From Candidatus Shapirobacteria bacterium (GTDB taxonomy: Bacteria > Patescibacteriota > Microgenomatia > UBA12405): DNA of 64,000 nucleotides. The DNA lies in assembly GCA_028704885.1 (NCBI GenBank), contig JAQWEN010000001.1, forward strand, positions 651,203 to 715,202. The letters run 5' to 3'. Shown here in pieces: positions 1 through 62,823 of this stretch (its first letter is position 1; the number at the start of each line of letters is the position of its first letter). The notes beneath the pieces are model-generated. The model saw nothing but the letters and a program-made list of their open reading frames with translations, was not told the origin of the DNA and did not search any database. Made by a program: the position numbers and the translations under genes.

Positions 1-1475
1 TTAATATACAACACGTCAGCTTCACTATTGTGAAAATTACGAAAAGCATCTTCTATTGAATCAACAATAGGTTCCCCTGCAATATTTAAAGAACTATTCA
101 TAAGTATTGGAACTCCAGTGATCTTACCAATCTCAACGAGAAGCTCATGAAGTACCGGATTGTCTGATTTGCTAATTGTTTGTATTCTTGATGTGTCATC
201 ATAATGAACAATTGCTGGGGCTATTTTTTTTAAAACCTGATTTATTTTTGGCGAAAAAGTCATAAAAGGTGATGGGTGATTGATTTTGAAAAATTTTGAT
301 AAATTTTCTTCGGTTGTTATTGGTGATATTGGACGATAAGGTTCTCTTTTTTTTATATCTATACTAAGTTTATCTTTTAATTTAATAGTTGATGGAAGAC
401 CTAAAAAACTTCTATGACCTAACGCTCTCGGACCAATTTCACTTTTTCCTTGATACCAAGCAATAATTTTTTTATCAACTAAATCTTGAATTAGTCTATT
501 TGGAATCTTTTTAATATCATCACCAAAATGTCTACCTAAAAATGGATACTTGCAAATAGTGTTTGGATATCTATACATAATTGCACCTAATGATTGTCCA
601 CAATCACTAGCTATCGGAGTTGTAATTATTTTTTTAAAAATTTTTAAATCATCTAAGGCTGATATTAAAGAAACATTTAAAGCACAACCTCCGACTAAGG
701 CTATATTTTTACTAATATTGCTATGTTTTAATATTTTTTCTATAAAATTATTTTGCCAGTACAGCTGAGCTGTAAATGCTAAATCACATCTTTTTTCATC
801 TCGCCATGGTTTTGAATAATCATTGGATAAACCGAATATTTTATTAAGATTTTCAACACCATCATTATGAAGTTTATTTATCTCTTTGCCATTTTTTTCT
901 AATAAATTATTATAATTTACTGAATATTTACCTAATCCAGCAAGACCCATGGTTTTTCCTGGATAAGTATCGTGTGCTCGACCAACGTTTGGATCAATAA
1001 CCATCTGTGTTATAGTTCCATAGAATTTTCCAGTAATAACTTCACTATCATAATCTGCTATTAAAGAAATATTGTTGTTATTGTCTTTATAATAAAATTT
1101 AGTGGTTCCATCTTCTGACCCACCATCGGCACAAACAATTAAACAATCAGATTTGTGAATAGGAAAAATTGTACCAATATGATTATTGTGATGTCCTGTT
1201 TCTATTAGATTAAAATTCTTACCATTTATTGTTTCGTTTGAATTAAATTGATTGTTCCACTTTGCTACCAAAACTTCTTTTACTTGTTTTATATCTATAT
1301 TTAAATAGTGAAGTGAATAATTTATTAACTCGAACATTTGTTCTTTGTTTAAATGAATGTGTTTTTTTCTAAAATATCTTTCTGCTTCTAAATGAAGAAT
1401 TATTTCTTTGTCGTCGGCGAAGGTAATAGATGAATCATGGTAACCAAAATATACTGAAAGTATGTAATTTTTCAT
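1..1475 (-). CDS. NodU/CmcH/TobZ-family carbamoyltransferase (3'-partial; C-terminus runs off the window start)
   Basis: Not in the ORF track because no stop lies in the window. Start ATG = revcomp of cat at 1473-1475. The N-terminus MKNYILSVYFGYHDSSITFADDKEIILHLEAERYFRKKH matches the carbamoyltransferase N-terminal signature (YHDS...EERF.R.KH). The Kae1-like core has LVGGCALNVSL (GGVALN motif) and SDCGQSLGA. The C-terminal YrdC-like carbamoyltransferase domain has RSFLG...REPYRPISP...PAIVHYDDTSRIQT...PILMNSSLNIAGEPIV. It lies 9 nt downstream of the viperin-like gene. Confidence 0.85.
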   Translation of the reverse strand, partial: MKNYILSVYFGYHDSSITFADDKEIILHLEAERYFRKKHIHLNKEQMFELINYSLHYLNIDIKQVKEVLVAKWNNQFNSNETINGKNFNLIETGHHNNHIGTIFPIHKSDCLIVCADGGSEDGTTKFYYKDNNNNISLIADYDSEVITGKFYGTITQMVIDPNVGRAHDTYPGKTMGLAGLGKYSVNYNNLLEKNGKEINKLHNDGVENLNKIFGLSNDYSKPWRDEKRCDLAFTAQLYWQNNFIEKILKHSNISKNIALVGGCALNVSLISALDDLKIFKKIITTPIASDCGQSLGAIMYRYPNTICKYPFLGRHFGDDIKKIPNRLIQDLVDKKIIAWYQGKSEIGPRALGHRSFLGLPSTIKLKDKLSIDIKKREPYRPISPITTEENLSKFFKINHPSPFMTFSPKINQVLKKIAPAIVHYDDTSRIQTISKSDNPVLHELLVEIGKITGVPILMNSSLNIAGEPIVDSIEDAFRNFHNSEADVLYI

Positions 1476-1484
1476 ATTTTTTAA

Positions 1485-2456
1485 TTACTTTATTGTCCAC
1501 TCTCTATTATTGATTGTTTTTTTAATTGTTTTTTGAAATTTGGTTATCGTTTCATATATATCTTCTTTGTTTGCATTGTTAGTATCTAAAATACTTCTAT
1601 GTTTATTATCTACCAACTGAAGCATTCCATCTGGAGAAACAAAAAAATAAGCATTATTGTGATCTGAGTTTGCACGAGGAGCTATATTTGCCTGAGGAAA
1701 TCTTTTTTTTAGATGATTAATAACTGACCAAAATTTTTGATCGTCAATTTCGTATCGTTTAGCATTATTTTCTCCCCTTTCTATTTTTTCAAATTGATAA
1801 ATTCGCCAAATGTCGGGATGAGATATCCCTGGTGTTTCATATAATAAGACTCCTATATTTTCAATATCATCAATATTTATTTTTGAAACTATTGTCCCAA
1901 TTTTAATTTTATGGTCTGGTTTTTCTTTATCTAAATAAACAAGTATAGATTTTACATTATCAATCATATAAGAAGCCCTTCCCATCAAATTGTTCATTTT
2001 TTTATTTGATCCATCAAGAGGTAACCCTAAAACTTTGATATTATCTTTAATTTCTTTATATCTTGTAGAGAGATATGTACCATTTGTCGATAAATATACT
2101 GAAATATCTAAATTATTTGCAATTTTTATAATTTCTGGAGTATCTTTTCTAAGAAGCGGTTCCCCACCACCAATATTAATCTTTTTTAATCCTAACTCAG
2201 CAAATGTTATTAATAATTTTGTAATTTGATCAAATGTTAATTCAGGTCTAGATTCATTTAATCCAGTTATATTTATAGTTTCAATACTAGGTTTGTATAA
2301 AAAGACCTCTTGTGAATTTATCTCTTTAATATTTTGATTATCTATTGGATTATCAGCACCATAACAAAAAGGACATTTCATATCACACCTACCAGTTATA
2401 AAAAAATCGATTATAAGATCTGGACTTAATTTATTATTTTTATTTTTTTTTATCAT
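1485..2456 (-). CDS. radical SAM enzyme, viperin-like (prokaryotic viperin/pVip candidate; predicted ddhNTP synthase)
   Basis: CxxxCxxC motif in ITGRCDMKCPFCYG. The SAM-binding motif INIGGGEPLL is present. Blocks resemble animal viperin: KINIGGGEPLL vs KINFSGGEPFL; YLSTNGTYL vs SIVSNGSLI; PLDGSNKKMNNLMGRAS vs SCDSFDEEVNVLIGRGQG; and the viperin-specific C-terminal block DIWRIYQFEKIERGENN vs VRWKVFQCLLIEGENCG. Its 323 aa matches the viperin core length. It is adjacent to a P-loop nucleotide kinase, as for described pVips. Confidence 0.65.
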   Translation of the reverse strand: MIKKNKNNKLSPDLIIDFFITGRCDMKCPFCYGADNPIDNQNIKEINSQEVFLYKPSIETINITGLNESRPELTFDQITKLLITFAELGLKKINIGGGEPLLRKDTPEIIKIANNLDISVYLSTNGTYLSTRYKEIKDNIKVLGLPLDGSNKKMNNLMGRASYMIDNVKSILVYLDKEKPDHKIKIGTIVSKINIDDIENIGVLLYETPGISHPDIWRIYQFEKIERGENNAKRYEIDDQKFWSVINHLKKRFPQANIAPRANSDHNNAYFFVSPDGMLQLVDNKHRSILDTNNANKEDIYETITKFQKTIKKTINNREWTIK

Positions 2457-2465
2457 TTTAAATGA

Positions 2466-3296
2466 TTAAATTATGTGTGATTTGATTATTGAAACAATAT
2501 CATCTATTGGCTTGTCTGTTTCTATCACAATATATTCAAGACCAATTTCTTGTTTGGCTATTTCCAAGGCTTGATGAAAACCTCTTGATTCATTTACAAT
2601 TACATTATAACTACTATAATCCCAGAGACTAATTTCTTTTTTAAGTAAATTGGGATTTTTTTCAATAATTTTTTTTGTATTTAAAATGATTTTTTCTCTT
2701 ACATCTGAAGGAGGCTGGATAATATCTAATGCATTATTTATCATTGAATCTTGATTTTCGACGCCAATAGTAGATCTTGCTAATTGTCTAGATATAGAAA
2801 TAACAGGATCAATATCAAGTAAAAATATTTTCTTAATATTAAGAAGTTTTGTGAGCTTTAAGGCTTCTTCTTTAATTTCATCTATATAGGGATTATTAGG
2901 ATCTTCAGAAAGACAAAAGGCTAAAGTCATTAGTGGAGTGCGATCTAAAAGATGATAGGTATTTTCATTATATGAATCAAGACTTTTTAAAAATAAATTT
3001 GTTTGATATTTTGTGGCAAGTCTAAACAATTTTTGTTTTTTATGATCTTCAAGTTGGCGTTCGGTTTGATTACCTTGTTTTCTTTGTTCTTCTCTGGCAT
3101 ATAAAATTTTTTTTAATGTACCTACTCTTTCGGAATTTCCCATTCCAGCAATTTTAGAAATTACAACCTCATTTTCATTAGATTTAAGAGATTCACTAAG
3201 TTTTATTAACGAATGGCTTTTTCCAGAACCGCCTATACCATCAATAGCGTATATTTTTCTATTAAATATTTCCCTATGTTCACATTCAATATTCAC
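2466..3296 (-). CDS. thymidylate-kinase-family P-loop nucleoside-monophosphate kinase (Tmk-like, divergent)
   Basis: P-loop IYAIDGIGGSGKSHS matches Tmk G-x-DG-xGKST. A DR motif is present (LLDRTPLMTLAF). An insertion rich in charged residues is present. The start is GTG. It ends 10 nt upstream of the viperin-like gene. Confidence 0.65.
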   Translation of the reverse strand: MNIECEHREIFNRKIYAIDGIGGSGKSHSLIKLSESLKSNENEVVISKIAGMGNSERVGTLKKILYAREEQRKQGNQTERQLEDHKKQKLFRLATKYQTNLFLKSLDSYNENTYHLLDRTPLMTLAFCLSEDPNNPYIDEIKEEALKLTKLLNIKKIFLLDIDPVISISRQLARSTIGVENQDSMINNALDIIQPPSDVREKIILNTKKIIEKNPNLLKKEISLWDYSSYNVIVNESRGFHQALEIAKQEIGLEYIVIETDKPIDDIVSIIKSHII

Positions 3297-3357
3297 ATTT
3301 TGTATTATATCAGGTAATTTTTTTTATTGTTTATTTGATAATAAACCGCAAATAAAA

Positions 3358-3864
3358 TTAAAATTCCTTATTCGGTTGAGAGATATCTATTAATTTAATT
3401 TTTGTTTTGTTCATCATTGTTTCGTCACCAGGTTTCAATTTATTTAATCTACTAATAATGGGTGCTTGAAAAGATATTGTTTCTGAATTATTTTCTACTT
3501 CTGTTGAGATTGTTGCATCCCATGGAGTACCGATTTTAAGAATTGTATTTTTATCTTCATTTTCAAATCTAATAACTAATTTTCTGCCAATAATAAAACC
3601 TTCTACAGATTCACCTTCTCTAATTATCACTGCATTATTCAATGCTTTTGTTCTTCTCGAGATTTCATCTTCAATACTATTCCAACCACCTAAAGCATCT
3701 AAAACTGTAGCTGATTGTCTAAAAGTACCGAGATCATAAGATTCATTAACAGTTGTTAGTTCTGCTTCTCTTTTTTTTTCTAGAGTTTCAATGCTGACTT
3801 TTAATAAATCTCTAGTTTTTTGTGTCATATAATCAGATATTTTTTCCATATGGTATTTTATCAT
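3358..3864 (-). CDS. greA: GreA/GreB-family transcription elongation factor
   Basis: N-terminal coiled-coil region. The C-terminal FKBP-like block IIGRKLVIRFE...ISFQAPIISRLNKLKPGDE matches the GreA ISxxSPxGxALxGKxVGD region. Size is 168 aa. Confidence 0.65.
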   Translation of the reverse strand: MIKYHMEKISDYMTQKTRDLLKVSIETLEKKREAELTTVNESYDLGTFRQSATVLDALGGWNSIEDEISRRTKALNNAVIIREGESVEGFIIGRKLVIRFENEDKNTILKIGTPWDATISTEVENNSETISFQAPIISRLNKLKPGDETMMNKTKIKLIDISQPNKEF

Positions 3865-3912
3865 TTAAAATTATTACTTTAAAAGTAAATAAATCTTGAT
3901 TATTAAGATAAT

Positions 3913-3949
3913 TTGTAACCAAAAACCCTCCGATGTTTTTCGGAGGGTT
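3913..3949 (-). terminator. rho-independent terminator downstream of pnp
   Basis: Hairpin aaccctccg-N8-cggagggtt (3924-3949) followed on the minus strand by a T-run (revcomp of ttgtaaccaaaaa). Confidence 0.6.
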
Positions 3950-3971
3950 AAAATTTTAATTTAAATTTTAT

Positions 3972-6179
3972 TTATCTTCGAGGGCGGAAGCCACCAGAGC
4001 GATTATCGTCTCGGCGAGGTGGAGTGAAATTTCGGAAACCACCAGTGCGATTATCTTGACCTTGGCCTTCTTCGCGAGGTTGGCCTGGGTGAGCGGCTTT
4101 AAACTCTGGAGAAGCTAATTTAATTTGATGGTTGTCATTGAATCCGGCAATTTTGACGTTTAGATGATCACCAACTTTAATAATAGAAGATGGATCAGAT
4201 AAAAATCCGCCTGACATTTCAGAGACATGAAGCAAAGCTTCACGACCTGGTAAGAATTCAACAAAAGCACCATAGGCTTCGACTCGGGTAACAATACCTT
4301 CATAGTCTTCACCAATTTCAACTTCTTTAATCATGGATTCAATTTCGTAAGCAGCTTTGTCAATATTTTCCTGATTTTGGGAAGAAATTGAAGCTTTTCC
4401 AAAATCATCAATGTCGATTTGGACATCGTATTTTTCCATGAGAGCTTTGATGGTTTTACCACCGCTGCCGATAACTTCACCGATTTTGTCTTCTGGAAGA
4501 GCAACCATTTTAATTTTTGGAGCAAATTCAGAAAGTTGGGCTCGTGGAGCAGCCAAAACTGATTCCATTTTGTCTAAAATTTGAAGTCTGGCTTTAGTTG
4601 AAGCGACAAAAGTGTCGGTGATCATTTTTAAAGTAAGACCGGCTCTTTTGATGTCTAATTGAATAGCAGTGATGCCATTTCTGGTTCCAGTGATTTTGAA
4701 ATCCATGTCACCATTATGATCTTCGGTTCCAGCAATGTCGGTTAAAAGAACATAGTTATCGTCAGTTTCAGCAACTAGACCGATGGAAATTCCAGCGACT
4801 TTGTCTTTGATGGGAACACCAGCGTCCATAAGGGACATAGTGGATCCACAAGTTGAAGCCATAGAAGATGAACCGTTTTGAGATAAAACTTCAGAGGTTA
4901 AAACAATAGTATAGGGAAATTCTTCTTCAGTAGGAATGACCGGAATTAAGGCTTTTTCAGCAAGAGCACCATGACCGATTTCGCGACGACCTGGACGACC
5001 AACTCGACCGGTTTGACCAGTGGAGAAAGGTTGAGCAGAATAATAATGAAGATATCTTTTGGTGGTTTCACCGCTGGAATCTTCGAGATATTGTTTTTCA
5101 GATAAAGGAGCAAGGGTGGTAACCGTAATAGCTTGAGTTAAACCTCTTTGGAAAAAAGCTGAACCATGAACACAAGGAAGAACACCAACTTCGATAGTCA
5201 AAGGACGGATTTCGTCCATTTTTCGATGATCAAAACGAATGCCTTTTAAAGTTCGAATACGAAGAGTAGTTCTAATAACTGAATCAACAGCCGCAATTAA
5301 ATGATTTTTAGAAATTTCTTCAGATTCAATTTTGGCTTCATAAGCCTCTAAAACTTGATCAACAATTTTTTCTTGACCAGCCATATGAGAACCATCAACA
5401 CCAGCTTCTAAAAAGGCCTCAACATCGGCTTTAATTTTAGATTCGATTTCTTTAATCAAATCAGCGGATGGACCAGCTGATTCATATTTGATCTTTTCCT
5501 TACCGCATTCTTTGGCCCAGGCAGTGATTTCTTTATTAACTTCATCACTAGTAGTTTTAGCTAATTCAATACCTTTTAGGGCAATATCATTGGCAACGAT
5601 ATTAGCGTCACATTCAATCATATTGACGCCAGCAGGGCTAGTACAAACTAAAAGATCCATATTGGATTTTTCTAATTCTTTGGATGAGGGATTTAAAGTT
5701 AATTGATCATTAATATAACCAACACGGACAGCGGAAACTGGACCGTTAAATGGGATATCAGAGATGGCTAAAGCGGCAGCAGCGGCAGTGAAGGCAGGAA
5801 TAACAACATCATTATCTTTATCATTACTTAGAACAGTAGCGATAATTTGAACTTCGTTCATAAAATCACTAGGGAAAAGAGGGCGAAGAGATCGGTCGAT
5901 AATTCGGCCAAAAAGGACAGCACTATCAGAAGGACCACCATCGCGTTTAATCCATTTTCCACCTTTAACGATGCCGCCAGCATAAAGCTTGTCGACAAAT
6001 TCGATAGACAAAGGAAAATAATCCTTAGAATCGTCGGTTTTACCCATAATAACGGTGGCTAAAACAGTAGTATTGCCGTATTGAGCCACGACTGAGGCAT
6101 TGGTTTGAGGAGCGAGTTTACCAGTTTGGAGAGTAATCTTTTTGCCGCCCACTAGAATATCTTTTGTATACATTTCCAT
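3972..6179 (-). CDS. pnp: polynucleotide phosphorylase (PNPase) with Gly/Arg-rich C-terminal tail
   Basis: Two RNase PH-like domains plus KH and S1 domains (IGSGGKTIKAL...; GIVTRVEAYGAFVEF). The C-terminal tail is EEGQGQDNRTGGFRNFTPPRRDDNRSGGFRPRR. Conserved rpsO-pnp pair. Confidence 0.95.
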   Translation of the reverse strand: MEMYTKDILVGGKKITLQTGKLAPQTNASVVAQYGNTTVLATVIMGKTDDSKDYFPLSIEFVDKLYAGGIVKGGKWIKRDGGPSDSAVLFGRIIDRSLRPLFPSDFMNEVQIIATVLSNDKDNDVVIPAFTAAAAALAISDIPFNGPVSAVRVGYINDQLTLNPSSKELEKSNMDLLVCTSPAGVNMIECDANIVANDIALKGIELAKTTSDEVNKEITAWAKECGKEKIKYESAGPSADLIKEIESKIKADVEAFLEAGVDGSHMAGQEKIVDQVLEAYEAKIESEEISKNHLIAAVDSVIRTTLRIRTLKGIRFDHRKMDEIRPLTIEVGVLPCVHGSAFFQRGLTQAITVTTLAPLSEKQYLEDSSGETTKRYLHYYSAQPFSTGQTGRVGRPGRREIGHGALAEKALIPVIPTEEEFPYTIVLTSEVLSQNGSSSMASTCGSTMSLMDAGVPIKDKVAGISIGLVAETDDNYVLLTDIAGTEDHNGDMDFKITGTRNGITAIQLDIKRAGLTLKMITDTFVASTKARLQILDKMESVLAAPRAQLSEFAPKIKMVALPEDKIGEVIGSGGKTIKALMEKYDVQIDIDDFGKASISSQNQENIDKAAYEIESMIKEVEIGEDYEGIVTRVEAYGAFVEFLPGREALLHVSEMSGGFLSDPSSIIKVGDHLNVKIAGFNDNHQIKLASPEFKAAHPGQPREEGQGQDNRTGGFRNFTPPRRDDNRSGGFRPRR

Positions 6180-17309: not shown

Positions 17310-20300
17310 TTATTTTAATAAATAATGTAAATGGTCTTTGTCTTTACAGTCTTTACCGATTTCAAAGAATTCTAAATTCAAGATTTTTTGATAGACATCT
17401 TCAATTTGAGTTTTTAATTTATTTAAATCCTCATCGGCAACACTTATTTCTTTTCTGATAAAACTCTTTTTTAATTTGCTTTTTTCAATAAAATCAATGA
17501 TACCTTGATTAAATTTAAAACGAGAATCGTTTTTAATATCTAGTAATAATTTATAAAAAACAATTTGGCGATAGTAATCTCCATCGGAAGAAAGTTCTTT
17601 ATATTTATTATCAGAATTACCGGTTTTAAAATCGATAACATTGATTTTACCGTTGGCTTCTTTTTCAATTAAATCGATTTTTCCGGTTAAAGGAATATTT
17701 TTGTAAACAATATTTTCAGCGGCGAAATTATATTCAGAAATGTTGTCGTCTTTGACAGAATTCACATATTGATCATAATATTGCGTCAAAATTTTGTGGC
17801 CGTTTTCCAAACACCATTGATAATCTGCCTTGGGTAATCTTTCATTTTTTAAACTTTGTTCAAAAGTTTTTAAAATTTCTTCTTGAGATTTTTTTTGATA
17901 AAAAACGGAAAGAGCGGTATGAATAGCAGTGCCAAAACTACTAAATTTTTCCTTGTTTTGGGGAATTCTTAAAATAGTTTTGTAATAAAAACAGAGCGGA
18001 CAACGAAGGTAGGAATTTAAATGGCTGACATTAAATTTATAATGATTGGTTAAATAATCTTTTAAATATTCTGATAAATCTGGTTTTAGGTCGTGAGAAA
18101 CGTCAGTAAACTGGTAATAAGTTTTGAGAGCAGCGGTTTTGTCATTAAACTTAATATTTTCGATTAATTTAGAATCGATTTCAGAAACAAAGATGGAGGG
18201 ATTTTGATTTTTACCATTTTCTTTATATTGGGAATAAGAAAGATAAATTTGTTTTTTGGCACGAGTAAGAGCCACATAAAAAAGACGACGGTCTTCTTCG
18301 TAATCATCTTCGATACTTTTGGTAATTTCACTTCTTAGAATTCCAAAAGGTAGTTTTAATTTATTAAAATCGCGTTGTTTTTCCCAAGAATCTTCAAGGA
18401 GCCGATAAATAAAAACATGATCAAATTCTAAACCTTTAGCCCCATGGACAGTTAATATTTTTATAGAATCAGAGGAATCATAAGTGATGGATGGAGAAGA
18501 AACGGAAATTTTATTTTCATCATATAAATGAATTCGGTCAATAAATTCTTTTAGAGAGAGATCTTTTTTAGCGACAGTGTCTTTTAAAAGTTTATAAAAA
18601 GAATGAACTTGGTTAAGAGATTCAATATCGTTTTTTGATAAGCAATATTTTAAAATTCTAAATCTTTTTAGAATTTTATTTAAAACTTTTTCTAAAGGAT
18701 AATTTTCCAAATCAACCTTAGTTTTGGCAATTCTTTTACCAAATTTAGAAATTATTTGCTTTGATTTATCTGAGACGTTAAGTTTGTCAATTTCTTTCTC
18801 GTCAAAAATTAAATTACAAAGGATAGTTTTTGATTTTAAAATTTTTACTAAATCAAGAGAATTTAATTTAATAAAAGGGGCAGCCAAAATGTGATAAACC
18901 GATTCATTAAGATTGGGATTATCAACAAATTCTAATAATTTGATTATTTGAATAATGAGAGGATTTTTTAAAAGGTTAGAATCGGAAGGAAGAAAAAATT
19001 TAATATTAAAAGCCGATAACATTTTAGTTAATTCCTCAGCATCACGATTTTTACGAAGTAAAATAGCAATTTCACTCGGGCTTTGACCAGATTTAATTAG
19101 ATCAGAAATTTTTTGAGCGACATAATAATCTTCTTCAATATTTGAATTTAGAGTAATTAAATTAATCGGGTCGGGATCATAATTTTTGTTGGCAATTAGA
19201 GTTTTGTCAATGTCGGTAATTAAGTTGGCAATGCGATTTTTATTATGAGAAATGACACTGTCAGAAGAATCCAAAATAAGTTTATGACTACGATAATTAT
19301 TTTTTAAAACAATTTTTTTAGGATTATATTTTTGATAAAAATTGTAAATATTTTCAATAGAAGCACCTTGAAATCTAAAAATTGATTGGTCGTCATCCCC
19401 AACCACAAAAATATTAGGGTTATCGTAATAACTTCCCAATAAATCGATTATTTGGCTTTGGCTGGAGTTAGTGTCCTGATATTCATCGACGAGAATATAT
19501 TGGTATTTTTCCTGAAAATTGAGTAAAAGATCAGGATTGTCATTGAAAGCTTTGATAACAAATAAAATCATATCTTCGTAATCATAAAGGGCTCTTTTTT
19601 GAAGTTCTTGTTGATATTGATCAAAGATTTTGACAAATTCCTTTTGTTTAGGAATATTTTTTTCGAAATCTTGATAGAACTTGCGAACTTCATTTTTTAC
19701 TTGGCTTAAGTTTTCATTACCGCTTCTAATTATTTGCAGATGACTTTTGAGATTGAGGGAAATAAATTTAGAATTTTCTAATTCATCAAATATTTTATTT
19801 ATTTCTGAATAATTATTTTTAGTCGCCCGAATATTACTAAGTTGATTAATAAAATCGCCTGAATTTTGGAAAAAATTTTCCTCATCTTTAATTAAATCTA
19901 ATAGAGTTTCTTTTGAGATATTTTCTCTTTTGGCTAAATGAAGACAATCGAGAATACTTCTTTGATAACAATAACGATCACCCCAAGTAATTAATGGCGA
20001 AGAATTGTCTAAATGATCGATAATATTTTTAATTATTTCGATGGTTTCAAGGTCATCAATGGCTTTTAAACTAGACGAAGCGAAAGGAAAATATTGAGGA
20101 TTTGAAGAAATAATGTCGTTGCAAAAAGCATGGAAGGTACAAATTTTAACTTTGTAAGCGTCGGGGCCAATCATATCCAGTAAACGATTTCTCATATTGT
20201 TGGCGGCAACATCGGTGTAAGTTAAACATAAAACGGAACTAGGTTTAGTGTCGGTTTTGTCCAAAATATTGGCGATACGAAGGGCAATGGTTTGAGTTTT

Positions 20301-27992: not shown

Positions 27993-30335
27993 CTATAGTT
28001 GGTAAATCTTAGTTTTACCAGACTGAAATATAATTTGCCCACCAATTTTTATAAAATTATCTTCATTTAATTCAGGATATTTTTCGTATTCTTTGGTACC
28101 AACAAAAATATATTGAATATTATATTTTTGAATTAATTTTTTTAATCGATTAAGATCTGAACTTGATGATTCGTTTTTAGTTTCTGGAATTTCGGCATAC
28201 AGAATTAATTTTTGATTTGGATGAATTAATGAGGGATTTTCTAAATTATTAAGCGATGCAATTTCTTTCCATAAATATTCATTTTTAAGTTGTTCTTTTG
28301 AAATTTTCCAAAGTGTATCTCCAGAAGAAACAGTATATTCAATATTTTTATTATTTTCTAATGGTTCATTGTTTTTAGTTGATGATTCATAGATGGCTTG
28401 AACGTCGTCTTGGCGTTGTTTTGGTTTATCGTAACCTCCACGCCAAAGCCATTCATGAACTATCCAACCTTCAACAGTTGGAAGGCCGGTAGCGACAGAA
28501 ATTTGATTGAAAGTAGTATAACTATCACCTACTGCTTCAAGCATGACTGGTTGACCGGAAATATTTTTGTTAATCCAATCAATCGCTTTAAAATTATCAG
28601 AATAACCGTCTTTTAAGTAATTTAAACCCCACAATCCTTGATAAGTTTTTGAGCCGTAAAATGATTTAATGGCAAAATAGGGATAAATTAAATGGATTGA
28701 AAAAATTAAAGTAAAAAGAATACCATATAAAATATTTGGAATTTTGGATTTTAATAATAATCTGGTTTTGTAAAAAACATAGCCGGAAACTAGGGCATAC
28801 ATCATGAAGGCCTGATAAACTAATTTGAACATGGTGTTGGCGCGACGGTGTTCGTAAATATAAATATCCTTTAAGTAAACTAATTCGGGAATAATAATCA
28901 AAATAGTGGCGGTAATGATCAGAGCAAAAACAAAAAGATCAGAATTTGAATTATAATTTTTAATTTTTAATTTGAAATTTTTAATAAACGATAATATCAG
29001 GGGTAAAACAATTAACCAAAAACCACCATATAAAATAAACAATTGATAAAAAGCACTGTGACCATCAGAAATTCTGATACCATTAGTCATGGGAACAAAA
29101 TTTGAAGAGAAGGGAATACTAAAAATAAACCAAGCTGCAATTGTTAAGACTCCATTGATTAAAGTTTTTTTAATAGCTGATTTTCGATCATTTTTAAGAT
29201 TCAAAAAGAAAGTAAAAACAGCAAAAAGAAGACCATAAATAGCAAAATCCCAAGCATTGGTCATATAAGCAATTGACAAAACAAAACCGGAAATAATAAT
29301 AACAGGATAGTTAATTAAAGCAGAAGAAAAAAAACTTGAAGCTAATAAAAAAGCCATAAAAAATAAGACAATAGGAATGTCATTCATATGACCATGAAGG
29401 TCAGCAACGACAAAACTATAAAGTGGAAACTCGTGAATAGTTTTATCTTTAATATCAGGGTCGTGACCAATAAAACGAGTGGCGTCTGGATACCAATATT
29501 TATCGGCTGACTCACTAATAGCTTTTTTTGATAAAACTAATTTGCCATTATCTTGAATATCTATTTTGGCAATTTTATAAACTGAATGAAGATTGCCACC
29601 AAAAGTTAGAAGAAGAGCTGAAATTAAACCAGCGATGATAATTTTTGGAACAAACCCACCCGCCCTATGGGCACCCTCCCTTGACAAGGAGGGCTTTATT
29701 GTTAAAAAAACTAGATTTGAAGCAATAGAAAAAGTAAAAGAAAAGGTAAAAGCACAAACAGTGGCTATAGATAAATTGTAAGTAATAGCCGAACTAATGG
29801 TGCTTAATTTAGTTAAAACAGCAAAAATTATATGACCAAAATAATAATAATTAATAATTTCACCAGAAAACCACATGTCTTGGGGAGGTAAAAATTTAGA
29901 ACGTAGGGCTGAATTAATAAAACCCCAATCCATATATTTTTCCAAACCTTCAATATCTGAGGCAAAACCCCTAACAAAAGACCAAACAACTAGAATTGAA
30001 AGAAATAAAATTTCTTGAAAAATGAAAACCTTATAATTTTCTTTAATAATTTTTAAAAATAGAGATAAATTATTTTTGTATCTAAGAAATAAAATATTTA
30101 GTAATAAAATTAGGGCTAAGATTAAAAATAAATTTAAATTACTAAAAACTAAAATTTTAAAAACACCACCGACTAAAATTAGATAAGTTGAAAAAACAAT
30201 ACAAATAATTTTGGAAAAAATATAACCCTTATCCCAAAATTTTTTAAATAGGAAAACAGTTATTGGCAAAGTTAAAAGACCTAAAGAAAAAATCAAAAAC
30301 CACCAAGAAATAATTGGAGTTAGATCGGACAACAT
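27993..30335 (-). CDS. large polytopic membrane protein (about 13+ TM helices) with C-terminal LysM domain
   Basis: Hydrophobic N-terminal 500 aa with the YWYPDATRFIGHDPD...HEFPLYSFVVADLHGH block. The C-terminal LysM is YTVSSGDTLWKISKEQLKNEYLWKEIASLNNLENPSLIHPNQKLIL. Contains the in-frame GC-rich element R2. Confidence 0.6.
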   Translation of the reverse strand: MLSDLTPIISWWFLIFSLGLLTLPITVFLFKKFWDKGYIFSKIICIVFSTYLILVGGVFKILVFSNLNLFLILALILLLNILFLRYKNNLSLFLKIIKENYKVFIFQEILFLSILVVWSFVRGFASDIEGLEKYMDWGFINSALRSKFLPPQDMWFSGEIINYYYFGHIIFAVLTKLSTISSAITYNLSIATVCAFTFSFTFSIASNLVFLTIKPSLSREGAHRAGGFVPKIIIAGLISALLLTFGGNLHSVYKIAKIDIQDNGKLVLSKKAISESADKYWYPDATRFIGHDPDIKDKTIHEFPLYSFVVADLHGHMNDIPIVLFFMAFLLASSFFSSALINYPVIIISGFVLSIAYMTNAWDFAIYGLLFAVFTFFLNLKNDRKSAIKKTLINGVLTIAAWFIFSIPFSSNFVPMTNGIRISDGHSAFYQLFILYGGFWLIVLPLILSFIKNFKLKIKNYNSNSDLFVFALIITATILIIIPELVYLKDIYIYEHRRANTMFKLVYQAFMMYALVSGYVFYKTRLLLKSKIPNILYGILFTLIFSIHLIYPYFAIKSFYGSKTYQGLWGLNYLKDGYSDNFKAIDWINKNISGQPVMLEAVGDSYTTFNQISVATGLPTVEGWIVHEWLWRGGYDKPKQRQDDVQAIYESSTKNNEPLENNKNIEYTVSSGDTLWKISKEQLKNEYLWKEIASLNNLENPSLIHPNQKLILYAEIPETKNESSSSDLNRLKKLIQKYNIQYIFVGTKEYEKYPELNEDNFIKIGGQIIFQSGKTKIYQL
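29654..29693 (+). repeat. GC-rich double-hairpin repeat element, copy R2, located in-frame inside the 27993-30335 CDS
   Basis: Sequence acccacccgccctatgggcaccctcccttgacaaggaggg. It encodes KPSLSREGAHRAGG in a loop between TM helices. Confidence 0.55.
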
Positions 30336-30337
30336 AA

Positions 30338-30910
30338 CTATTTAATAAAGAAAACAAAATTAAAAATCGTTCTGATTATTTCAGTAAGAAAAACTGGTAA
30401 AACAATCCATTTTGAAAGTAGCCAAATAAGGCTACCAGCAATTATTCCACCAAACATATCGATTGGATAATGAAAACCAATAAAAATACGGAAAAACAAA
30501 AGGGGTGAAACTATTGATAAAAATAAAGGAACTGAAAAAACTTGATATTGGATAATAAACAAAAGAAAATAAAGACTTTTAATGGTGTGACCAGAAGGGA
30601 AGGAACCAGTTTTATACCATTTTTTAACTAAACCTGGAGGAAGATTATCATTTTTCTCAAAAAGTGGTCGACGCCAATAAATTTTGCTTTTTAAAAAACG
30701 TTCAAAAAATTCAGCAATAATTGTAGCAATAAGAATCTGCCAAAAAATATTGGCATCTTTTCTGATTAAGAGATAAGAAACATAAAAGAAAAAAAACCAG
30801 ATTATATAATTAAGAATAATTAAGATTTTTTTTCTTAATAAGTTTTGTTCAAACCAGAGTAGCCAATCTTTTTTAGGCTGCCAAAATAAAAGCGATTTTA
30901 AAAAACTCAT
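30338..30910 (-). CDS. PAP2-family lipid phosphate phosphatase
   Basis: Motifs KSKIYWRRP (KxxxxxxRP), FPSGHT (PSGH) and FRIFIGFHYPIDM (SRxxxxxHxxxD-like). Six TM helices. Confidence 0.8.
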   Translation of the reverse strand: MSFLKSLLFWQPKKDWLLWFEQNLLRKKILIILNYIIWFFFFYVSYLLIRKDANIFWQILIATIIAEFFERFLKSKIYWRRPLFEKNDNLPPGLVKKWYKTGSFPSGHTIKSLYFLLFIIQYQVFSVPLFLSIVSPLLFFRIFIGFHYPIDMFGGIIAGSLIWLLSKWIVLPVFLTEIIRTIFNFVFFIK

Positions 30911-30953
30911 TCATTTATTATAAAACCTTTTTGAATATTGTTATAATTCAGTT

Positions 30954-32102
30954 GTGAAAATATTAATTTCAACACCTTATTATTTGCCTAATGTTTCGGG
31001 AATTACAGTTTATATTAATGTATTGGCAGAAGAACTGGTAAAAAGAGGACATAAAGTAACAATTTTAACCAGCAGACATGATTTAACGACAAAAAAGGAA
31101 GAAACTGTAAATGGAGTAAAAATAAGACGGTTAAAAATTGCTTTCAAAATAGGTAAAGGGTCGATTGTTCCCTCTTTTTTATTTGAATCAATAAAAGAAA
31201 TTAAAAAGCATGATGTAATTGACTGCCAACTTCCTCAGCCAGAATCTTTATGGATAGCAATTGTAGGAAAATTTTTAGGTAAAAAAGTATTTTTGACTCA
31301 TCATACTGATTTAAGTTTTTGGAAAGGATTTAAAAATAAAATAATTGACGGGGGAGTTTTTATTTGTCAATATTTAGCGGCATTATTATCAACTAAAATA
31401 ATCCCCTATACTGATGATTATGCTAAGAATTCATATTTCTTAAAAAGATTTTTTGATAAAACAGTGGCGATTTATCCACCAATCAAATTTGAGGAAAAAG
31501 AAGATTTTAATCTAGAAGTAAAGATTAATACATTGGTTAAAAATAAAAAATATGTGATTGGATTTTGCGGTCGAATTGCTAAACAAAAAGGAATTGAATT
31601 ATTAATAAAATCGAGTAAGTTATTGGATAAAAAATTAGGAAAAGATAATTATGTGATTCTGATGGTAGGACCAATAACGGTAATTGGAGAAAATTATTAT
31701 GATTATTTACAAAATAAATATAAATCAATCTTGAAAGAAAGATTTATTTTTATGGACAATATTGAAAGAAAATTTCTTTCTACTTTTTACAAAAAAATTG
31801 ATTTATTGGTTTTACCAAGTGACGACAGATTAGAATCTTTTGGTTGGGTGCAAATTGAAGCAATGAAATGTGGAACGCCATGCGTGGCGACAAATTTACC
31901 AGGAATGAGAATTCCTGTTTTAGAAAGTAAATTTGGGGAATTATTTGAAAATAAAAACGAGATTGATTTGGCTAATAAAATAGAATTGGTTTTGAAAAAT
32001 GGAAAAAAATATTACCAAAATAAATTTATTAAAAATATCGATATTTTTAATTACGAAAAAAGTTTAGATGATTACGAAAAATTATTTTCAGAAAGAGTTT
32101 AA
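30954..32102 (+). CDS. GT4-family glycosyltransferase (GT-B fold)
   Basis: 382 aa with a GTG start. C-terminal EAMKCGTPCVATNLPGM matches the GT4 E-x7-E region. The N-terminus ISTPYYLPNVSGITVY is typical of GT4. Confidence 0.85.
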   Translation: MKILISTPYYLPNVSGITVYINVLAEELVKRGHKVTILTSRHDLTTKKEETVNGVKIRRLKIAFKIGKGSIVPSFLFESIKEIKKHDVIDCQLPQPESLWIAIVGKFLGKKVFLTHHTDLSFWKGFKNKIIDGGVFICQYLAALLSTKIIPYTDDYAKNSYFLKRFFDKTVAIYPPIKFEEKEDFNLEVKINTLVKNKKYVIGFCGRIAKQKGIELLIKSSKLLDKKLGKDNYVILMVGPITVIGENYYDYLQNKYKSILKERFIFMDNIERKFLSTFYKKIDLLVLPSDDRLESFGWVQIEAMKCGTPCVATNLPGMRIPVLESKFGELFENKNEIDLANKIELVLKNGKKYYQNKFIKNIDIFNYEKSLDDYEKLFSERV

Positions 32103-33758
32103 ACTAAAAGCTGAGGTTTTTTGAAATATTAAGACTTTAGGATGATCATAAACAGTAAAAGCTTCTTCGGCAGAAGTGTCATTAAAGACAGGATAAGAAG
32201 TGAATTCGGCAACTTGTTTGAAACCCAAAGAACCATCAAAAAGTGATTGATAATATTTAGCGGTTAAGGGATAAATATTTGAATTTCTGGGAATGGGTAA
32301 ATAAAAACGATTTGAAGAAATAATAATATAATCTGATTTGATTAATTGGTCTTTTATAATAGAAATCTTTTCTTGGCTGTCTGAATCTGCAATAGCAAGA
32401 CTTTGGTATTGGTAATCATAAATAGATTTATTTTTCAAAAACAAAGGCAAGGAATCATCCCAATATTCAGTTGCTAAAGTTGAACCAATTGGAATATTTT
32501 GATAAATCCACTTGGAGGCAGTTACTCGGGTGTGATCTTTTAAATAAATAGAGATAAAACAAATTGGATAAATTAATAAAATTATAAAAAAGAAAATTTT
32601 TACTAATTTTAAATTTAATAGTTTTGTTTGATGAATAAAAAAAGCAGAACTAATACAAAGAAAAGGATAAATTGGTAAAAAGTAACGCATGGTGGTAACG
32701 TGTTGAATTCCCTGATAAAAAAATAGAAGTAATATCCAGAAAATGATAATTAATAATTCATAATTTTTAATTTTTGATTTGAAATTTTTAATGATTGAAT
32801 AAAAAATGGAGAGGATAAAAATAATTCCTAAAGGTAATCCGGCACCCCAAAGGATAATATTTTTAAGAGGAAAAATTAGAGGAATAGTTTTTAACCATTG
32901 AATCCCCGGTGGATAATAAGACATTTGATTGTAGCTTTGAAGTTCTTTTAAATTAGAAATAAATTGAGGATTAAGATTCCAATTTATTAAATTACCTGAA
33001 GAAAAAGCTTGAGGTTGATTAAACCTGAAAATTAATGAAGTAAATAAAACAAAAATTAGACCATAAAAAATTAGTAATTTGGGGTTTTTATAAAAAATAA
33101 ACAAAAAATAAATAAAGATTACCGGCAAAAAATAAATGGCAGAAATTTTGCAAGATAAAGCAATTCCAAAAGATAAAGATAATAAAAAAACTTTTTTAAA
33201 TATATTTTTTTTGTCTTTAATTATGACTAAAAAATAAAAGGAGAGAACTATAAATAAATTTAAAAATGGATCGACAGTATAGAAATGAGATAGCTGAATT
33301 GGCAAAACACAAATGGAATAAAAGAAAGAAGATAGCAGAGCAATTTTTTGATTAAATATTTTTTGAGAAATTAAATAAATTAATAAAACAATTAAAACAT
33401 CAGCTAAGATAGTTAAGCCACGGCCAACAAAATGAATTTGATCGTAAGTTATTTTATTTAAAAATTCGCCTGCTATCTTAACTAAATTTAAAGGAAAAGC
33501 ACCATAAACAAAAAAAGAAAAATTATTATTGTAGGGATTCAATGTTGAAGTTTGAGGATTTAGATATTGACTAAGAGAAGTTGGTATTTTAATAGTAGTT
33601 AAAACCATGGTTAAAAATCTTTCATCTGGATGGAGATGTTGATTTTGATCCCAATTAAAACCAATAGTTCTAAAAAAAAGAGCTATAGATAAAATCGATA
33701 ATAGCAAAAAAATATTTTTTTTAGATTTAATTAGATAGAAGCAATTCTTGATAGTCAT
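32088..33758 (-). CDS. GT-C-fold polyprenyl-phosphate-dependent membrane glycosyltransferase (ArnT/PMT-like), paralog 1
   Basis: N-terminal loop motif HPDERF (the DE motif of GT-C enzymes). About 12 TM helices and a C-terminal soluble domain shared with the neighbouring paralog (YYQSLFDGSLGF...VYDHPKVLIFQK). Confidence 0.6.
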   Translation of the reverse strand: MTIKNCFYLIKSKKNIFLLLSILSIALFFRTIGFNWDQNQHLHPDERFLTMVLTTIKIPTSLSQYLNPQTSTLNPYNNNFSFFVYGAFPLNLVKIAGEFLNKITYDQIHFVGRGLTILADVLIVLLIYLISQKIFNQKIALLSSFFYSICVLPIQLSHFYTVDPFLNLFIVLSFYFLVIIKDKKNIFKKVFLLSLSFGIALSCKISAIYFLPVIFIYFLFIFYKNPKLLIFYGLIFVLFTSLIFRFNQPQAFSSGNLINWNLNPQFISNLKELQSYNQMSYYPPGIQWLKTIPLIFPLKNIILWGAGLPLGIIFILSIFYSIIKNFKSKIKNYELLIIIFWILLLFFYQGIQHVTTMRYFLPIYPFLCISSAFFIHQTKLLNLKLVKIFFFIILLIYPICFISIYLKDHTRVTASKWIYQNIPIGSTLATEYWDDSLPLFLKNKSIYDYQYQSLAIADSDSQEKISIIKDQLIKSDYIIISSNRFYLPIPRNSNIYPLTAKYYQSLFDGSLGFKQVAEFTSYPVFNDTSAEEAFTVYDHPKVLIFQKTSAFSLNSF

Positions 33759-35301
33759 CTGGACTTAGATTATTAACTTTTTTATAAATTCTAATAGTTG
33801 GTTGATCAAAAACAGACCAAGTTTCTTCAGCGTTTTCAGAATTTAAAAATAAATCCTTTTGATTACTAATTTTGATTATTTCCGAAAATCCAAGGTTTTG
33901 AGAAAATAAATTTCGATAATATTTTTGAGATAAGGGATAGTTTTCATTATTTTGATTTTTAAAAACTCGACGAGAAGGAATAAAAATATAATCGGCTGAA
34001 GTTAAAGCATCGGCTAGTTTGTTTAGATTATTTTTATCTGAATCCAATTCATAAAAATTAAAATTATCAACCTGAAGACTAGGGTAAGAAACTGGAAAGT
34101 TAACAACATTCCCCGATTCAGATAAAATAAAGGAATTGGATGGAATGTTGGATTTAACTAAATTTGAGGCATAAATTCTAACGTCAGGTGAAAAATATTT
34201 TTTGAAAAAATAAATACCTGGACTAATCATTAATAAAAGCAAAATAATAGTTAATATTTTATTGTTAATTTTTTTAAAAAGATAAAGACAAAAAAATGGA
34301 CCGATAAAAAAGAGGGGGGACATAAAACGAGTCCATTTTACAAATAGCTGACCAGCGTACAAAAAATAAATTATTGCTGGAACAAAAATTAATAATAATT
34401 CTTTTTTTAATTTGGTTTTTATAAAAAAGAAAAAACCAATAAAAGAGAAAATAAAAATAAATATTCCATTAGCATAGGGAAAAATATTTTTAAGCTGAAA
34501 AATATACGGCAGGGAATTTTCAAATTGACGGGTATAAAAAACTCTTAATTTACCGGTGGCAACTGCTGTTTCGTAAATCATTGATGATTTAAAATCTGAA
34601 AATTTGATTAGGTTAAAAGGAGAAAAAATAATTGCTAGTAATAAAAATATAATAGTAAATATTAAAGAGGTTAAAATAAATTTTGATATTTTTTTGTCTT
34701 TTAGAAAAAGCAAAAAGAAACAAAGATAAGTTGGTAAGACAAAAAAAATGGCGGTTATCTTCGAAGCCAGACCAACAGCACTAATTAAAATTAGAAATAA
34801 TAAATATTTCTTTTTTTGGTGTTGAAAATATTTTAAAGATAGGAGGATGTTGGCCGAAAAAACAAAGGTGAGAATTGATTCAGTGGTGCCAAAATGGGCA
34901 GATTGAATGAGACCAGGAGTAAAAATAAGAAGCAAAATGAATAAATAACTTATTTTTCTTGATTTAAAAATTATTTTGGAAATTAAATAAAAACAATAAA
35001 TCGAGAGACAGGAAAAGGTAGCTGACCAAAAACGCAAAGTCAAAATTATGGTGGAAAAATTATGTAAAGGGGTGGTTAGAAAGGTTAAAAAGAGAGGAAA
35101 TTGGCCGTAAGCAAAAAAATTGGGATTAAGGTTTTTAAAATTCATTTGAGCCACTGATGTGGCCATATTGTTTTCATCGGGATTAAAAAAATAACCATTA
35201 CCCCAATTTAGAAAACAAAAACGAGTAATAAGAGTAATTATCAATAAAAACAGCGGAAACAATATTTTTTTGACTTGATTAAATTGCATAAACAATACCA
35301 A
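33727..35301 (-). CDS. GT-C-fold polyprenyl-phosphate-dependent membrane glycosyltransferase (ArnT/PMT-like), paralog 2
   Basis: N-terminal NPDENN motif. Polytopic. The C-terminal domain YYRNLFSQNLGF...VFDQPTIRIYKK is paralogous to the 32088-33758 protein. Confidence 0.6.
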   Translation of the reverse strand: MVLFMQFNQVKKILFPLFLLIITLITRFCFLNWGNGYFFNPDENNMATSVAQMNFKNLNPNFFAYGQFPLFLTFLTTPLHNFSTIILTLRFWSATFSCLSIYCFYLISKIIFKSRKISYLFILLLIFTPGLIQSAHFGTTESILTFVFSANILLSLKYFQHQKKKYLLFLILISAVGLASKITAIFFVLPTYLCFFLLFLKDKKISKFILTSLIFTIIFLLLAIIFSPFNLIKFSDFKSSMIYETAVATGKLRVFYTRQFENSLPYIFQLKNIFPYANGIFIFIFSFIGFFFFIKTKLKKELLLIFVPAIIYFLYAGQLFVKWTRFMSPLFFIGPFFCLYLFKKINNKILTIILLLLMISPGIYFFKKYFSPDVRIYASNLVKSNIPSNSFILSESGNVVNFPVSYPSLQVDNFNFYELDSDKNNLNKLADALTSADYIFIPSRRVFKNQNNENYPLSQKYYRNLFSQNLGFSEIIKISNQKDLFLNSENAEETWSVFDQPTIRIYKKVNNLSPDDYQELLLSN

Positions 35302-52809: not shown

Positions 52810-53407
52810 TTTTGAGAGTACTGATAACAACTAAACGTTTTAAAGTGGTTCCTGGAGGCCAACAAGTCATTAAAGTGAGTTGATTTTGGCCGATTTTACT
52901 TGACATATAATTTAATTCATTGCCATTAATAATTTTTGTTTCATTAACAGTGTAAATATATTTTTGAGATTGATAATAAACAATAATTTCATCCCCTGTT
53001 TCTAATTTATTCAAAAGATAAAAGACGGCATTAAATTGATTGGCTTCATACCAATTACCAGCAGAATGGGCAAAAATAAAAGTGTTGCCGGATTTATCAG
53101 GGGTAGAAGTATCTTTGGCATGAGCAACCCCCTGAGTTAGAGCTCGTTGATAAATTTTAGAATTAAAAGGATCAACATTTTTAATAACTTTAGCATTGGC
53201 GTTAATTTTGGGAATAATAATGGAAAAGTCAAGATTAATTGGGACAATTTCAGTAGGTTTATCGGTTTTTTTATCTAGTTGATAAATTATTTCCGATTTT
53301 AATACTGGAGCAAAAGTAGAGACGGGAATTGTTAAAGAAATAAAAATAAAAAGAATTCCAACTAGAATAAATTTATTTCTTTTTATTCCTAATTTTTTTG
53401 ACAACAT
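52802..53407 (-). CDS. sortase (class A/E-like transpeptidase)
   Basis: N-terminal membrane anchor. Catalytic TLxTC as QLTLMTCWPPG, a His region (TFIFAHSAG) and an Arg (TTLKRLVVI). Immediately downstream of the giant surface protein. Confidence 0.72.
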   Translation of the reverse strand: MLSKKLGIKRNKFILVGILFIFISLTIPVSTFAPVLKSEIIYQLDKKTDKPTEIVPINLDFSIIIPKINANAKVIKNVDPFNSKIYQRALTQGVAHAKDTSTPDKSGNTFIFAHSAGNWYEANQFNAVFYLLNKLETGDEIIVYYQSQKYIYTVNETKIINGNELNYMSSKIGQNQLTLMTCWPPGTTLKRLVVISTLKND

Positions 53408-62711: not shown

Positions 62712-62823
62712 ATATAAGATTAATCTTGGGCAGACCAAATTTATAATAGTATCTACAAAGAGTATATTACTTTTTTATAGGAATTCAAGTCGAGCTGAAG
62801 ATAAACTTAATATGTTTTTATTA

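Follow-up and report, generated by a model that had tools for sequence, protein, structure and literature searches.

To our knowledge, the 3′-deoxy-3′,4′-didehydro (ddh) nucleotides made by viperins are the only natural chain-terminating antivirals common to bacteria and humans, and all viperin systems that we know to have been described end at the bare ddh-nucleotide. A viperin-fold radical S-adenosylmethionine (SAM) enzyme next to a gene of nucleoside monophosphate (NMP) kinase type is a familiar arrangement, seen in the vertebrate viperin-CMPK2 pair and in prokaryotic viperins (pVips) with kinases; in published surveys, kinases lie near 12% of bacterial viperins (bioRxiv 10.1101/2023.09.13.557418). 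We investigated such a pair in a 64,000-nucleotide (nt) stretch of a Candidatus Shapirobacteria genome (GCA_028704885.1, contig JAQWEN010000001.1, positions 651,203 to 715,202; hereafter the window). At its left edge a viperin-fold radical SAM enzyme (rSAM) and a kinase of thymidylate kinase (TMK) fold are encoded together with a carbamoyltransferase (CT), and beyond the edge the operon continues with a family-2 glycosyltransferase (GT2) and a Ham1/ITPase-type nucleoside triphosphate (NTP) pyrophosphatase. We propose that these five genes, with a Gre-factor-like protein encoded alongside, build a tailored nucleotide that is directed at RNA polymerase (RNAP) within the cell, a proposal that in our judgement stands at an even balance of probability.

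Viperin-kinase pairs are already known, and it is the coupling to CT, GT2, Ham1 and a Gre-like protein that appears to be new. Searching the literature, we found no viperin-like enzyme coupled to any of these four (the GreA query was noisy, swamped by the word "great"), nor any description of a variant with AdoMet decarboxylase and aminopropyltransferase, of a link to CYTH proteins or of modified ddh-nucleotides; an earlier statement, in a preliminary description of this DNA, that no link between viperin and a carbamoyltransferase had been described thus stands for the literature searched. Compared with pVips, the window's rSAM falls, like its whole clade, below the viperin cut-off, carries a 35-aa insertion and is paired with an enlarged TMK-fold kinase without a Pfam match; the cassette adds the conserved CT, GT2, Ham1 or HD phosphohydrolase and Gre-like protein, and most of its loci lie outside defence islands. 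Established knowledge of NodC-NodU offers an analogy for a paired GT2 and CT that work on one glycan, where the glycosyltransferase installs a sugar and the CT decorates it; the GT2 here differs in that it has no predicted membrane helix, is accompanied by no other nod-like genes and has nucleotide enzymes as neighbours. Phage pathways that hypermodify nucleotides and DNA (T4 type, with dNMP kinase, dNTP pyrophosphatase and glycosyltransferases) likewise unite, as is well established, NMP kinase, NTP pyrophosphatase and glycosyltransferase activities, but the present cassette is chromosomal in a bacterium of the candidate phyla radiation (CPR), and no base-modifying enzyme or polymerase lies nearby. 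Nor did the viral contigs that we scanned hold close relatives of the cassette: searches with the rSAM profile and with the CT brought up no rSAMs other than generic ones, 21-28% identical, and nothing related to the CT, and a phage origin was rejected on these scans.

The operon and its conservation

The gene order on the minus strand of the window is Gre-like gene, kinase, rSAM and CT. The kinase (3296..2466, 276 aa, GTG start), the rSAM (2456..1485, 323 aa) and the CT (ATG start at 1475, leaving the window at position 1) are separated by intergenic gaps of 9 nt each, and no terminator-like sites were predicted between them. This agrees with the preliminary description, which had placed these three open reading frames (ORFs) on one strand as a single transcript and had noted that the CT was cut by the window edge. 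The missing part is supplied by a public contig of 5,956 bp (L001), which encodes the same rSAM protein sequence and from whose kinase region a 60-nt stretch matches the window exactly. The full CT has 498 aa, with 491 codons within the window and the last 7 past its edge. Beyond it, L001 encodes the GT2 (L001 3986-4948, 320 aa), whose start overlaps the CT stop, then Ham1 (L001 4956-5546, 196 aa), 7 nt after GT2, and, 104 nt further on, the N-terminus of the Lon protease. No terminator-like sites were predicted within kinase-rSAM-CT-GT2-Ham1 on L001, and none of the five proteins has a predicted membrane helix.

The GT2 has PF00535 among the Pfam families listed for the gene, a DDD motif at 90-92 and GT-A relatives in the PDB; Ham1 scores 78.1 bits on PF01725 (threshold 22.5). 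We sought the C-terminal SHR motif in the Ham1 sequence and did not find it, so that Ham1 specificity may differ from the family norm.

The arrangement kinase-rSAM-CT-GT2, which we call type A, was found on at least six further independent contigs, with rSAMs 49-70% identical to that of the window, and the search for a conserved neighbourhood that had been suggested for the kinase, viperin and CT genes thus gave a positive answer. L088 (70%), L089 (61%) and L091 (59%) have the order kinase (276-279 aa), rSAM, CT (498 aa) and GT2 (320 aa); L090 (58%) differs from them by one additional gene, inserted between kinase and rSAM; and in L092 and L093 (50%) rSAM-CT-GT2 is followed by a canonical 190-aa Thymidylate_kin protein, the Ham1 gene being on the other strand. 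The longest recorded contigs of rSAM P0018 and CT P0119 are both 5,837 bp, which probably represents a further type A case. Across these loci the order rSAM-CT-GT2 is retained with gaps of 9-16 nt or overlaps, and the CT is always followed by the orthologous GT2. Four loci have Ham1 as their fifth gene; L089 and L090 have instead a 269-288-aa protein with HD-phosphohydrolase motifs (HNxxH...CHDLGN). The three-component system that had been envisaged therefore has to be enlarged, since the CT always comes with GT2, the fifth gene is Ham1 or HD, and a Gre-like gene lies alongside.

The flanks of type A loci differ, consisting of pnp/Gre-like and lon, of TruD, of iPGM with a ParA-containing plasmid-like region, or of restriction-modification (RM) and OLD genes. 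With rSAM-CT-GT2 retained in at least six independent loci between different flanks, accidental adjacency is ruled out, and the varied flanks, together with the replacement of the kinase by a non-orthologous one and of Ham1 by HD, argue for functional coupling and not for inherited synteny alone. The rSAM itself is rare, with ~30 close sequences among 5.8 billion proteins. In a neighbour-joining tree (without support values) the type A rSAMs form a single clade nested among others, which suggests a single recruitment of CT-GT2 into a family that is older.

Component enzymes and related cassettes

The rSAM has the Fe-S motif C24-x3-C28-x2-C31 and the SAM-binding motif G97-G98-E99, both invariant in its clade. 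Its best family is viperin_w_prok of NCBIfam (NF038283), on which it scores 117.9 bits against a curated cut-off of 180, and ten clade relatives are also below the threshold (72-129 bits); the match to PADLOC pVip has E = 2e-34. The clade profile searched against the PDB finds mouse viperin best (E = 1.8e-17), followed by MoaA (1.6e-9). When the AlphaFold2 model (pLDDT 89.8) was submitted to Foldseek, the top hit was mouse viperin with UTP/CTP bound (TM 0.71/0.78), and the top 15 were all viperin or viperin-like (E ~1e-14), with SkfB at rank 16 and MoaA at ~1e-10. The enzyme is a viperin by fold and not by the curated sequence threshold; the earlier label "viperin-like" holds for the fold and the pVip match, and fails at the NF038283 cut-off.

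The NTP-binding residues of mouse viperin in published structures are K120, R194, K220, R245, K247 and Y302. By profile alignment, R194, K220, K247 and Y302 correspond to R160, K185, R218 and Y270 of the rSAM; K120 is variable in the clade, R245 is replaced by I/V, and at two other viperin positions N77 becomes D17 and H79 becomes F19. A clade-specific insertion of ~35 aa comes right after CxxxCxxC (rSAM residues ~35-72, window 2353-2244); it is predicted to form a β-hairpin and a helix, with Y54 and E72 invariant and R70 nearly so, and it may reshape the substrate pocket. The substrate is likely to be a phosphate-bearing nucleotide. Chemistry of the ddh type would be a reasonable default guess.

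The kinase has the P-loop GIGGSGKS. Sequence searches returned only a weak dTMP-kinase match (E = 0.0018; 18 bits on TIGR00041, where the threshold is 83.25), and the window protein matched no Pfam family, PF02223 included; three members of the kinase family (P0078, P0082 and P0088) do carry PF02223. The family profile matches thymidylate kinases best (E = 8e-6), and the top Foldseek hits of the AlphaFold model (pLDDT 90.5) are thymidylate kinases in 50 of 50 cases. Invariant in the 25-member family are the P-loop G20-K26 (G20, G25 and K26), D118-R119, R170 and R174. As modelled, the protein has a TMK fold with the P-loop, the DR motif and the LID arginines, and it is ~80 aa longer than a canonical TMK.

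The assignment of the CT to the TobZ/NodU/CmcH type, with a Kae1-like and a YrdC-like domain, was confirmed by Pfam domains (Carbam_trans_C, E = 1.1e-52, 178.5 bits, cut-off 27; Carbam_trans_N, E = 1.2e-16, 61.6 bits, cut-off 24), by a weak Sua5/YrdC match (E = 0.0037), and by its best solved relatives, the carbamoyltransferase 7xb6 (E = 7e-39) and TobZ (E = 2e-33), to which GPRALGHRS and MNSSLN align. The motifs are GHHNNH at 94, ADGGSEDG at 116, SDCGQS at 290, GPRALGHRS at 348 and MNSSLN at 459, and the residues of the Kae1-type metal site are H95/H96-x-x-H99, D117 and D291; the roles of these motifs (metal site and carbamoyl-adenylate site) are as reported for the TobZ structure. The window CT shares with TobZ, NodU and CmcH the two-domain architecture, the adenylate motifs and the His/Asp residues. 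It differs from the solved relatives (576-702 aa) in being smaller by ~70-200 aa and in its reduced N-terminal domain. On the NodU equivalog model (NCBIfam NF041651) it scores 139.9 bits where the threshold is 1000, and the subfamily to which it belongs shows coupling to, or fusion with, a specific GT2 and a link to nucleotide enzymes.

Homologues of the CT number more than 1,500, all at least 47% identical among the 120 listed. Many of them (among P0150-P0216) reach a length of ~820 aa and include a GT2 domain, and the operon's GT2 is 46% identical to residues 500-811, the C-terminal half, of one such fusion. By these fusions CT and GT2 are a Rosetta-stone pair, one unit that is far commoner than the rSAM clade. 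CTs 55-61% identical to that of the window lie on contigs of 290, 159, 773 and 72 kb, none of which appears among the rSAM hits. On L102, a cyanobacterial conjugative plasmid, a glycosyltransferase, a CT (51% identity) and a HAD hydrolase occur together without the rSAM, and L103:7196-13780 (GCA_053535335.1, the 773-kb contig) has a 600-aa NTP_transf_2 nucleotidyltransferase, CT, GT2 and Ham1, again without it. The idea of a CT dedicated to the viperin-like enzyme was rejected on these grounds, which make the CT a recruited module. P0184 (a CT-GT2 fusion) and P0202 (a CT) have in their 90%-identity clusters 203-218-aa "thymidylate kinase" members with relatives among the kinases of other cassette types. 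Clusters whose longest contigs are equal in length suggest that the TMK-like proteins share contigs with CT proteins, a hint that in many more genomes the kinase lies next to CT(-GT2) or is occasionally fused to it. Nucleotide enzymes thus accompany CT-GT2 in loci without the viperin-like enzyme as well.

The rSAM clade at 31-50% identity has other partners. In type B loci an AdoMet decarboxylase, a BpsA_C-type aminopropyltransferase-like protein, the rSAM and a 222-227-aa protein of no assigned family occur together (L002:9587-13332, L003:9553-13247, L095:136-3912 and L097:7607-11269, often with a Gre-like gene; further cases are L004, L006, L009-L011 and L013-L016). The decarboxylase and the aminopropyltransferase-like enzyme are the usual partners of the clade, commoner in it than CT-GT2, and suggest aminopropylated nucleotides as the type B product. 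Type B occurs in Woesebacteria (CPR), in metagenome-assembled genomes labelled Gammaproteobacteria and in Clostridia, whose versions add CYTH and TMK-like genes. A single locus, L096, represents type C, with the order rSAM, methyltransferase, CYTH and Thymidylate_kin. The 222-227-aa type B protein has an invariant KP (KPD...) and a histidine motif KYVHxPD; its best PDB match is a nucleoside diphosphate kinase (NDK; E = 0.08), and we regard it tentatively as NDK-like. No homology was found between it and the window kinase.

Parts of type B recur in L103, where Ham1 is followed downstream by a 200-aa homologue of the type B protein (E = 1e-24 to that of L013), a methyltransferase and a protein with a GreA_GreB domain; the methyltransferase, Ham1 and the Gre-like protein are homologues of type B-linked proteins. 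Ribosomal protein L35Ae, known from archaea and eukaryotes only, is encoded on L103, which is therefore probably archaeal. With these homologues in L103, all variants draw on one parts list. Two further loci deserve mention in their own right. At L098:9392-10717 a 441-aa protein without a Pfam or PADLOC match lies between a Gre-like and a CYTH gene, beside a homologue of the window kinase, in the position where other cassettes have their core enzyme. At L100:6521-9407 a homologue of the window kinase overlaps a MoaA-like rSAM from outside the viperin clade, with Gre-like genes on both sides and an HD hydrolase upstream.

The Gre-like protein of the window (3864..3358 on the minus strand; 163-168 aa) is encoded directly upstream of the operon. 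It is a divergent one: the match to NCBIfam greA is full length (E = 8e-8) at 32 bits against a cut-off of 139, the "NDK regulator" (Rnk) model gives E = 3.8e-5, and the Pfam GreA_GreB C-terminal domain scores 17.8 against 26.9. A joint profile of the cassette-linked Gre-like proteins matches Gfh1/GreB in the PDB (E = 3.5e-4). Like the secondary-channel factors GreA/GreB, Gfh1, Rnk and DksA, it combines an N-terminal coiled coil with a C-terminal domain of the GreA_GreB family, and it matches GreA over the full length; it differs from them in its scores below threshold, its changed tip and its genetic linkage to nucleotide-tailoring cassettes. The position of the gene varies. It lies upstream of the kinase in the window and L088, in the kinase/rSAM interval in L090 (1245-1757), after GT2 in L089 (4435-4872), on the opposite strand past the 222-227-aa protein in L002, L003, L095 and L097, and after the kinase in L096 and L098 (8863-9390); a pair flanks the rSAM and kinase of L100 (6521-6958 and 8856-9407), and further copies are in L013, L016, L017 and L103 (13316-13780). 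A Gre-like protein thus accompanies nearly all cassette variants, including the archaeal-looking L103 without the rSAM; GreA-family proteins are, as far as we know, not to be expected in archaea. Elsewhere in the 64-kb window (of a genome of ~735 kb) we found no canonical GreA, and L098 has a separate canonical GreA two genes on from the cassette's Gre-like gene. The tips are conserved within each group, as DxGTFRQ (YDLGTFRQ in the window) or DGPWQSKQPDEM; in type B the motif reads DGPWQSKQ.

Proposed function and its alternatives

If the operon acts as a pathway to a tailored nucleotide, the kinase would supply or re-phosphorylate the nucleotide, and the rSAM would remodel the ribose of an NTP, by default through viperin-type chemistry. 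GT2 would then attach a sugar, and the CT would form carbamoyl-AMP and O-carbamoylate either the sugar added by GT2 or a hydroxyl still free, much as TobZ and NodU carbamoylate the hydroxyls of sugars. Ham1, or the HD hydrolase of some relatives, could trim or detoxify the triphosphate. The product would most likely be an RNAP-directed nucleotide analogue with antiviral or growth-arresting action, and the Gre-like protein would act at the RNAP secondary channel, where it would either shield the host RNAP or serve as a co-factor. We favour a tailored nucleotide because of the company of nucleotide enzymes, the lack of predicted membrane helices and the absence of glycan and transport genes from type A loci. 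A protective role for a factor of transcript-cleavage type is conceivable, given that nsp14 of SARS-CoV-2 removes an incorporated ddh-nucleotide by proofreading (PMC9415739).

Several points weigh against this proposal. The data show directly which domains are present, how the operon is built and conserved, and which fusions and shared parts occur; every substrate and product, the order of the steps and the target are our inference. The rSAM may not make a ddh-nucleotide, because it scores below the viperin threshold, has no equivalents of K120 and R245 and carries the insertion beside the cluster loop. Enzymes of the TobZ/NodU family and GT2s normally act on sugars or glycans. The type A loci may all be from related CPR lineages, so that their conservation could in part be inheritance. 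At the tip of the Gre-like protein one Asp is retained, a basic residue (Arg/Lys) is conserved and the second acidic residue is absent; cleavage by GreA needs two acidic tip residues (D41 and E44 in E. coli), and the missing one argues, as far as the sequence goes, against classical Gre activity. Moreover, BLASTP found no similarity between the Gre-like groups of the window and of type B, and hhalign gave E = 0.073; the groups are linked through the joint profile and through cross-hits via L089, L100 and L103, and with homology this weak the association of Gre-like proteins with the cassettes is probable, not proven. Finally, only L090 has a clear defence-island context (one of ~8 loci): downstream on the other strand (L090:6069-12020) it encodes a PD-(D/E)xK protein, an OLD-family AAA/TOPRIM protein and a 1,015-aa MmeI-type RM enzyme, and the other loci are flanked by housekeeping genes.

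The defence role proposed in the preliminary description is accordingly plausible and weakly indicated: one locus lies beside RM/OLD genes, whereas the others have housekeeping flanks and no accessory part has a specific counterpart in PADLOC. PADLOC gave no match for CT, GT2, Ham1, the window kinase or the 222-227-aa type B protein, and since the remaining parts gave only generic methyltransferase and nucleotidyltransferase matches, membership of the accessory genes in a known defence system was rejected. We regard phage defence as the leading biological role, though as less likely than not, with a regulatory role nearly as likely.

In its specific form the regulatory explanation holds that the modified nucleotide and the Gre-like protein act on the cell's own RNAP, in a manner like that of ppGpp/DksA, as a means of growth control in an organism that depends on a host and has a reduced genome. 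The linkage of Gre-like genes to nearly all variants fits it, as do the separate canonical GreA of L098, the housekeeping genes (pnp, lon, truD and those for ribosomal proteins) around most loci and the conserved coiled-coil tip motifs with their basic residue. We nevertheless consider it unlikely in this form, because the distribution is patchy and combinatorial, as in accessory or conflict systems, with so few close rSAMs known, and one locus has a defence neighbourhood. Base composition also tells against it: GC is 0.27-0.28 in the cassette region (window 1-4000) and 0.34-0.40 in the adjacent housekeeping genes, a difference that is suggestive and not specific, as similarly low values (0.25-0.28) occur elsewhere in the window, including 18000-20000 and 30000-34000. 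A slightly less probable explanation, and again an unlikely one, separates the two halves of the operon, so that CT-GT2 would decorate a cell-surface or protein glycan and share an island with the viperin-kinase pair but no substrate. The CT-GT2 unit does occur far more widely than the rSAM clade and without it, the closest solved relatives of GT2 are wall-teichoic-acid and polysaccharide transferases, the NodU family is established in sugar O-carbamoylation, and a distant CT from a cyanophage is encoded in an ordinary cluster of sugar-nucleotide genes, which also weighs against our own proposal. Yet no transporter, flippase, polymerase or sugar-nucleotide gene was found in any type A locus, the proteins have no predicted membrane helices, the neighbours in loci without the rSAM are still NTP_transf_2, Ham1, a TMK-like kinase and the tentatively NDK-like protein, and the tight rSAM-CT-GT2 order persists despite different flanks.

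Two other explanations are less probable still. An exported metabolite resembling a nucleoside antibiotic, aimed at the host bacterium or at competitors, would account for the list of rSAM, CT, glycosyltransferase, kinase and phosphohydrolase, which is familiar from nucleoside antibiotics such as polyoxin and tunicamycin; we think it quite improbable, as no exporter, resistance gene or regulator was found in any type A locus, the cassettes are very small, the genomes are reduced, and the Gre-like partner indicates an intracellular target. That the transferases instead modify the tip of the Gre-like protein, in the way that the tips of EF-P/eIF5A are modified, seems very improbable indeed: the tips do have invariant residues, and the alternative glycosyl-plus-carbamoyl, aminopropyl and methyl modules resemble the established variety of EF-P modifications, but the NMP kinase, the Ham1/HD/CYTH/NUDIX genes, the tentatively NDK-like genes and the viperin-fold or nucleotidyltransferase cores are left unexplained.

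Returning to the tailored nucleotide, the presence of GT2, CT and an NTP pyrophosphatase beside a viperin-like enzyme would, if the proposal is right, predict nucleotide analogues decorated beyond the ddh stage, with an aminopropyl or methyl transferase in place of these enzymes in sister cassettes; this would be a new chemistry that might serve for antivirals or antibiotics. That a Gre-like partner recurs suggests either that the cell shields its own multi-subunit RNAP from such analogues or that a small molecule and a secondary-channel factor together form a new kind of transcription control. Little is known of immunity and regulation in the CPR and DPANN organisms that have the cassette. 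It is possible, though we are doubtful, that the variants in CPR bacteria, DPANN-type archaea and some Clostridia belong to one combinatorial family of nucleotide-tailoring cassettes, a previously unrecognised RNAP-directed immune or regulatory class that makes new natural nucleotide analogues. In such a family, taken as a whole and with the same reserve, the constant parts would be a TMK-like kinase, a phosphohydrolase (Ham1/HD/CYTH/NUDIX) and a Gre-like factor, the core would vary between viperin-like rSAM, MoaA-like rSAM and nucleotidyltransferase, and the decoration between glycosyl plus carbamoyl, aminopropyl and methyl. A modular family of this kind would be close to categorically new.

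Transcription signals and neighbouring features

A consensus scan found a promoter-like site, TAAACA-18-TATAAT with a TG extension (3333..3304 on the minus strand; 10 of 12 matches, a pattern match only), ahead of the kinase. Its TG-extended -10 element stops 7 nt short of the GTG start of the kinase, and the kinase transcript may be leaderless; the starts of the rSAM and the CT have no obvious Shine-Dalgarno sequences. On the same strand a strong intrinsic-terminator-like hairpin (3949..3924; 10-bp stem with six GC pairs, followed by a T-run) ends the upstream pnp gene and marks the right-hand boundary of the cassette. Far from the operon, the minus strand of the window also contains a giant ORF of 3,121 aa (53373-62738).

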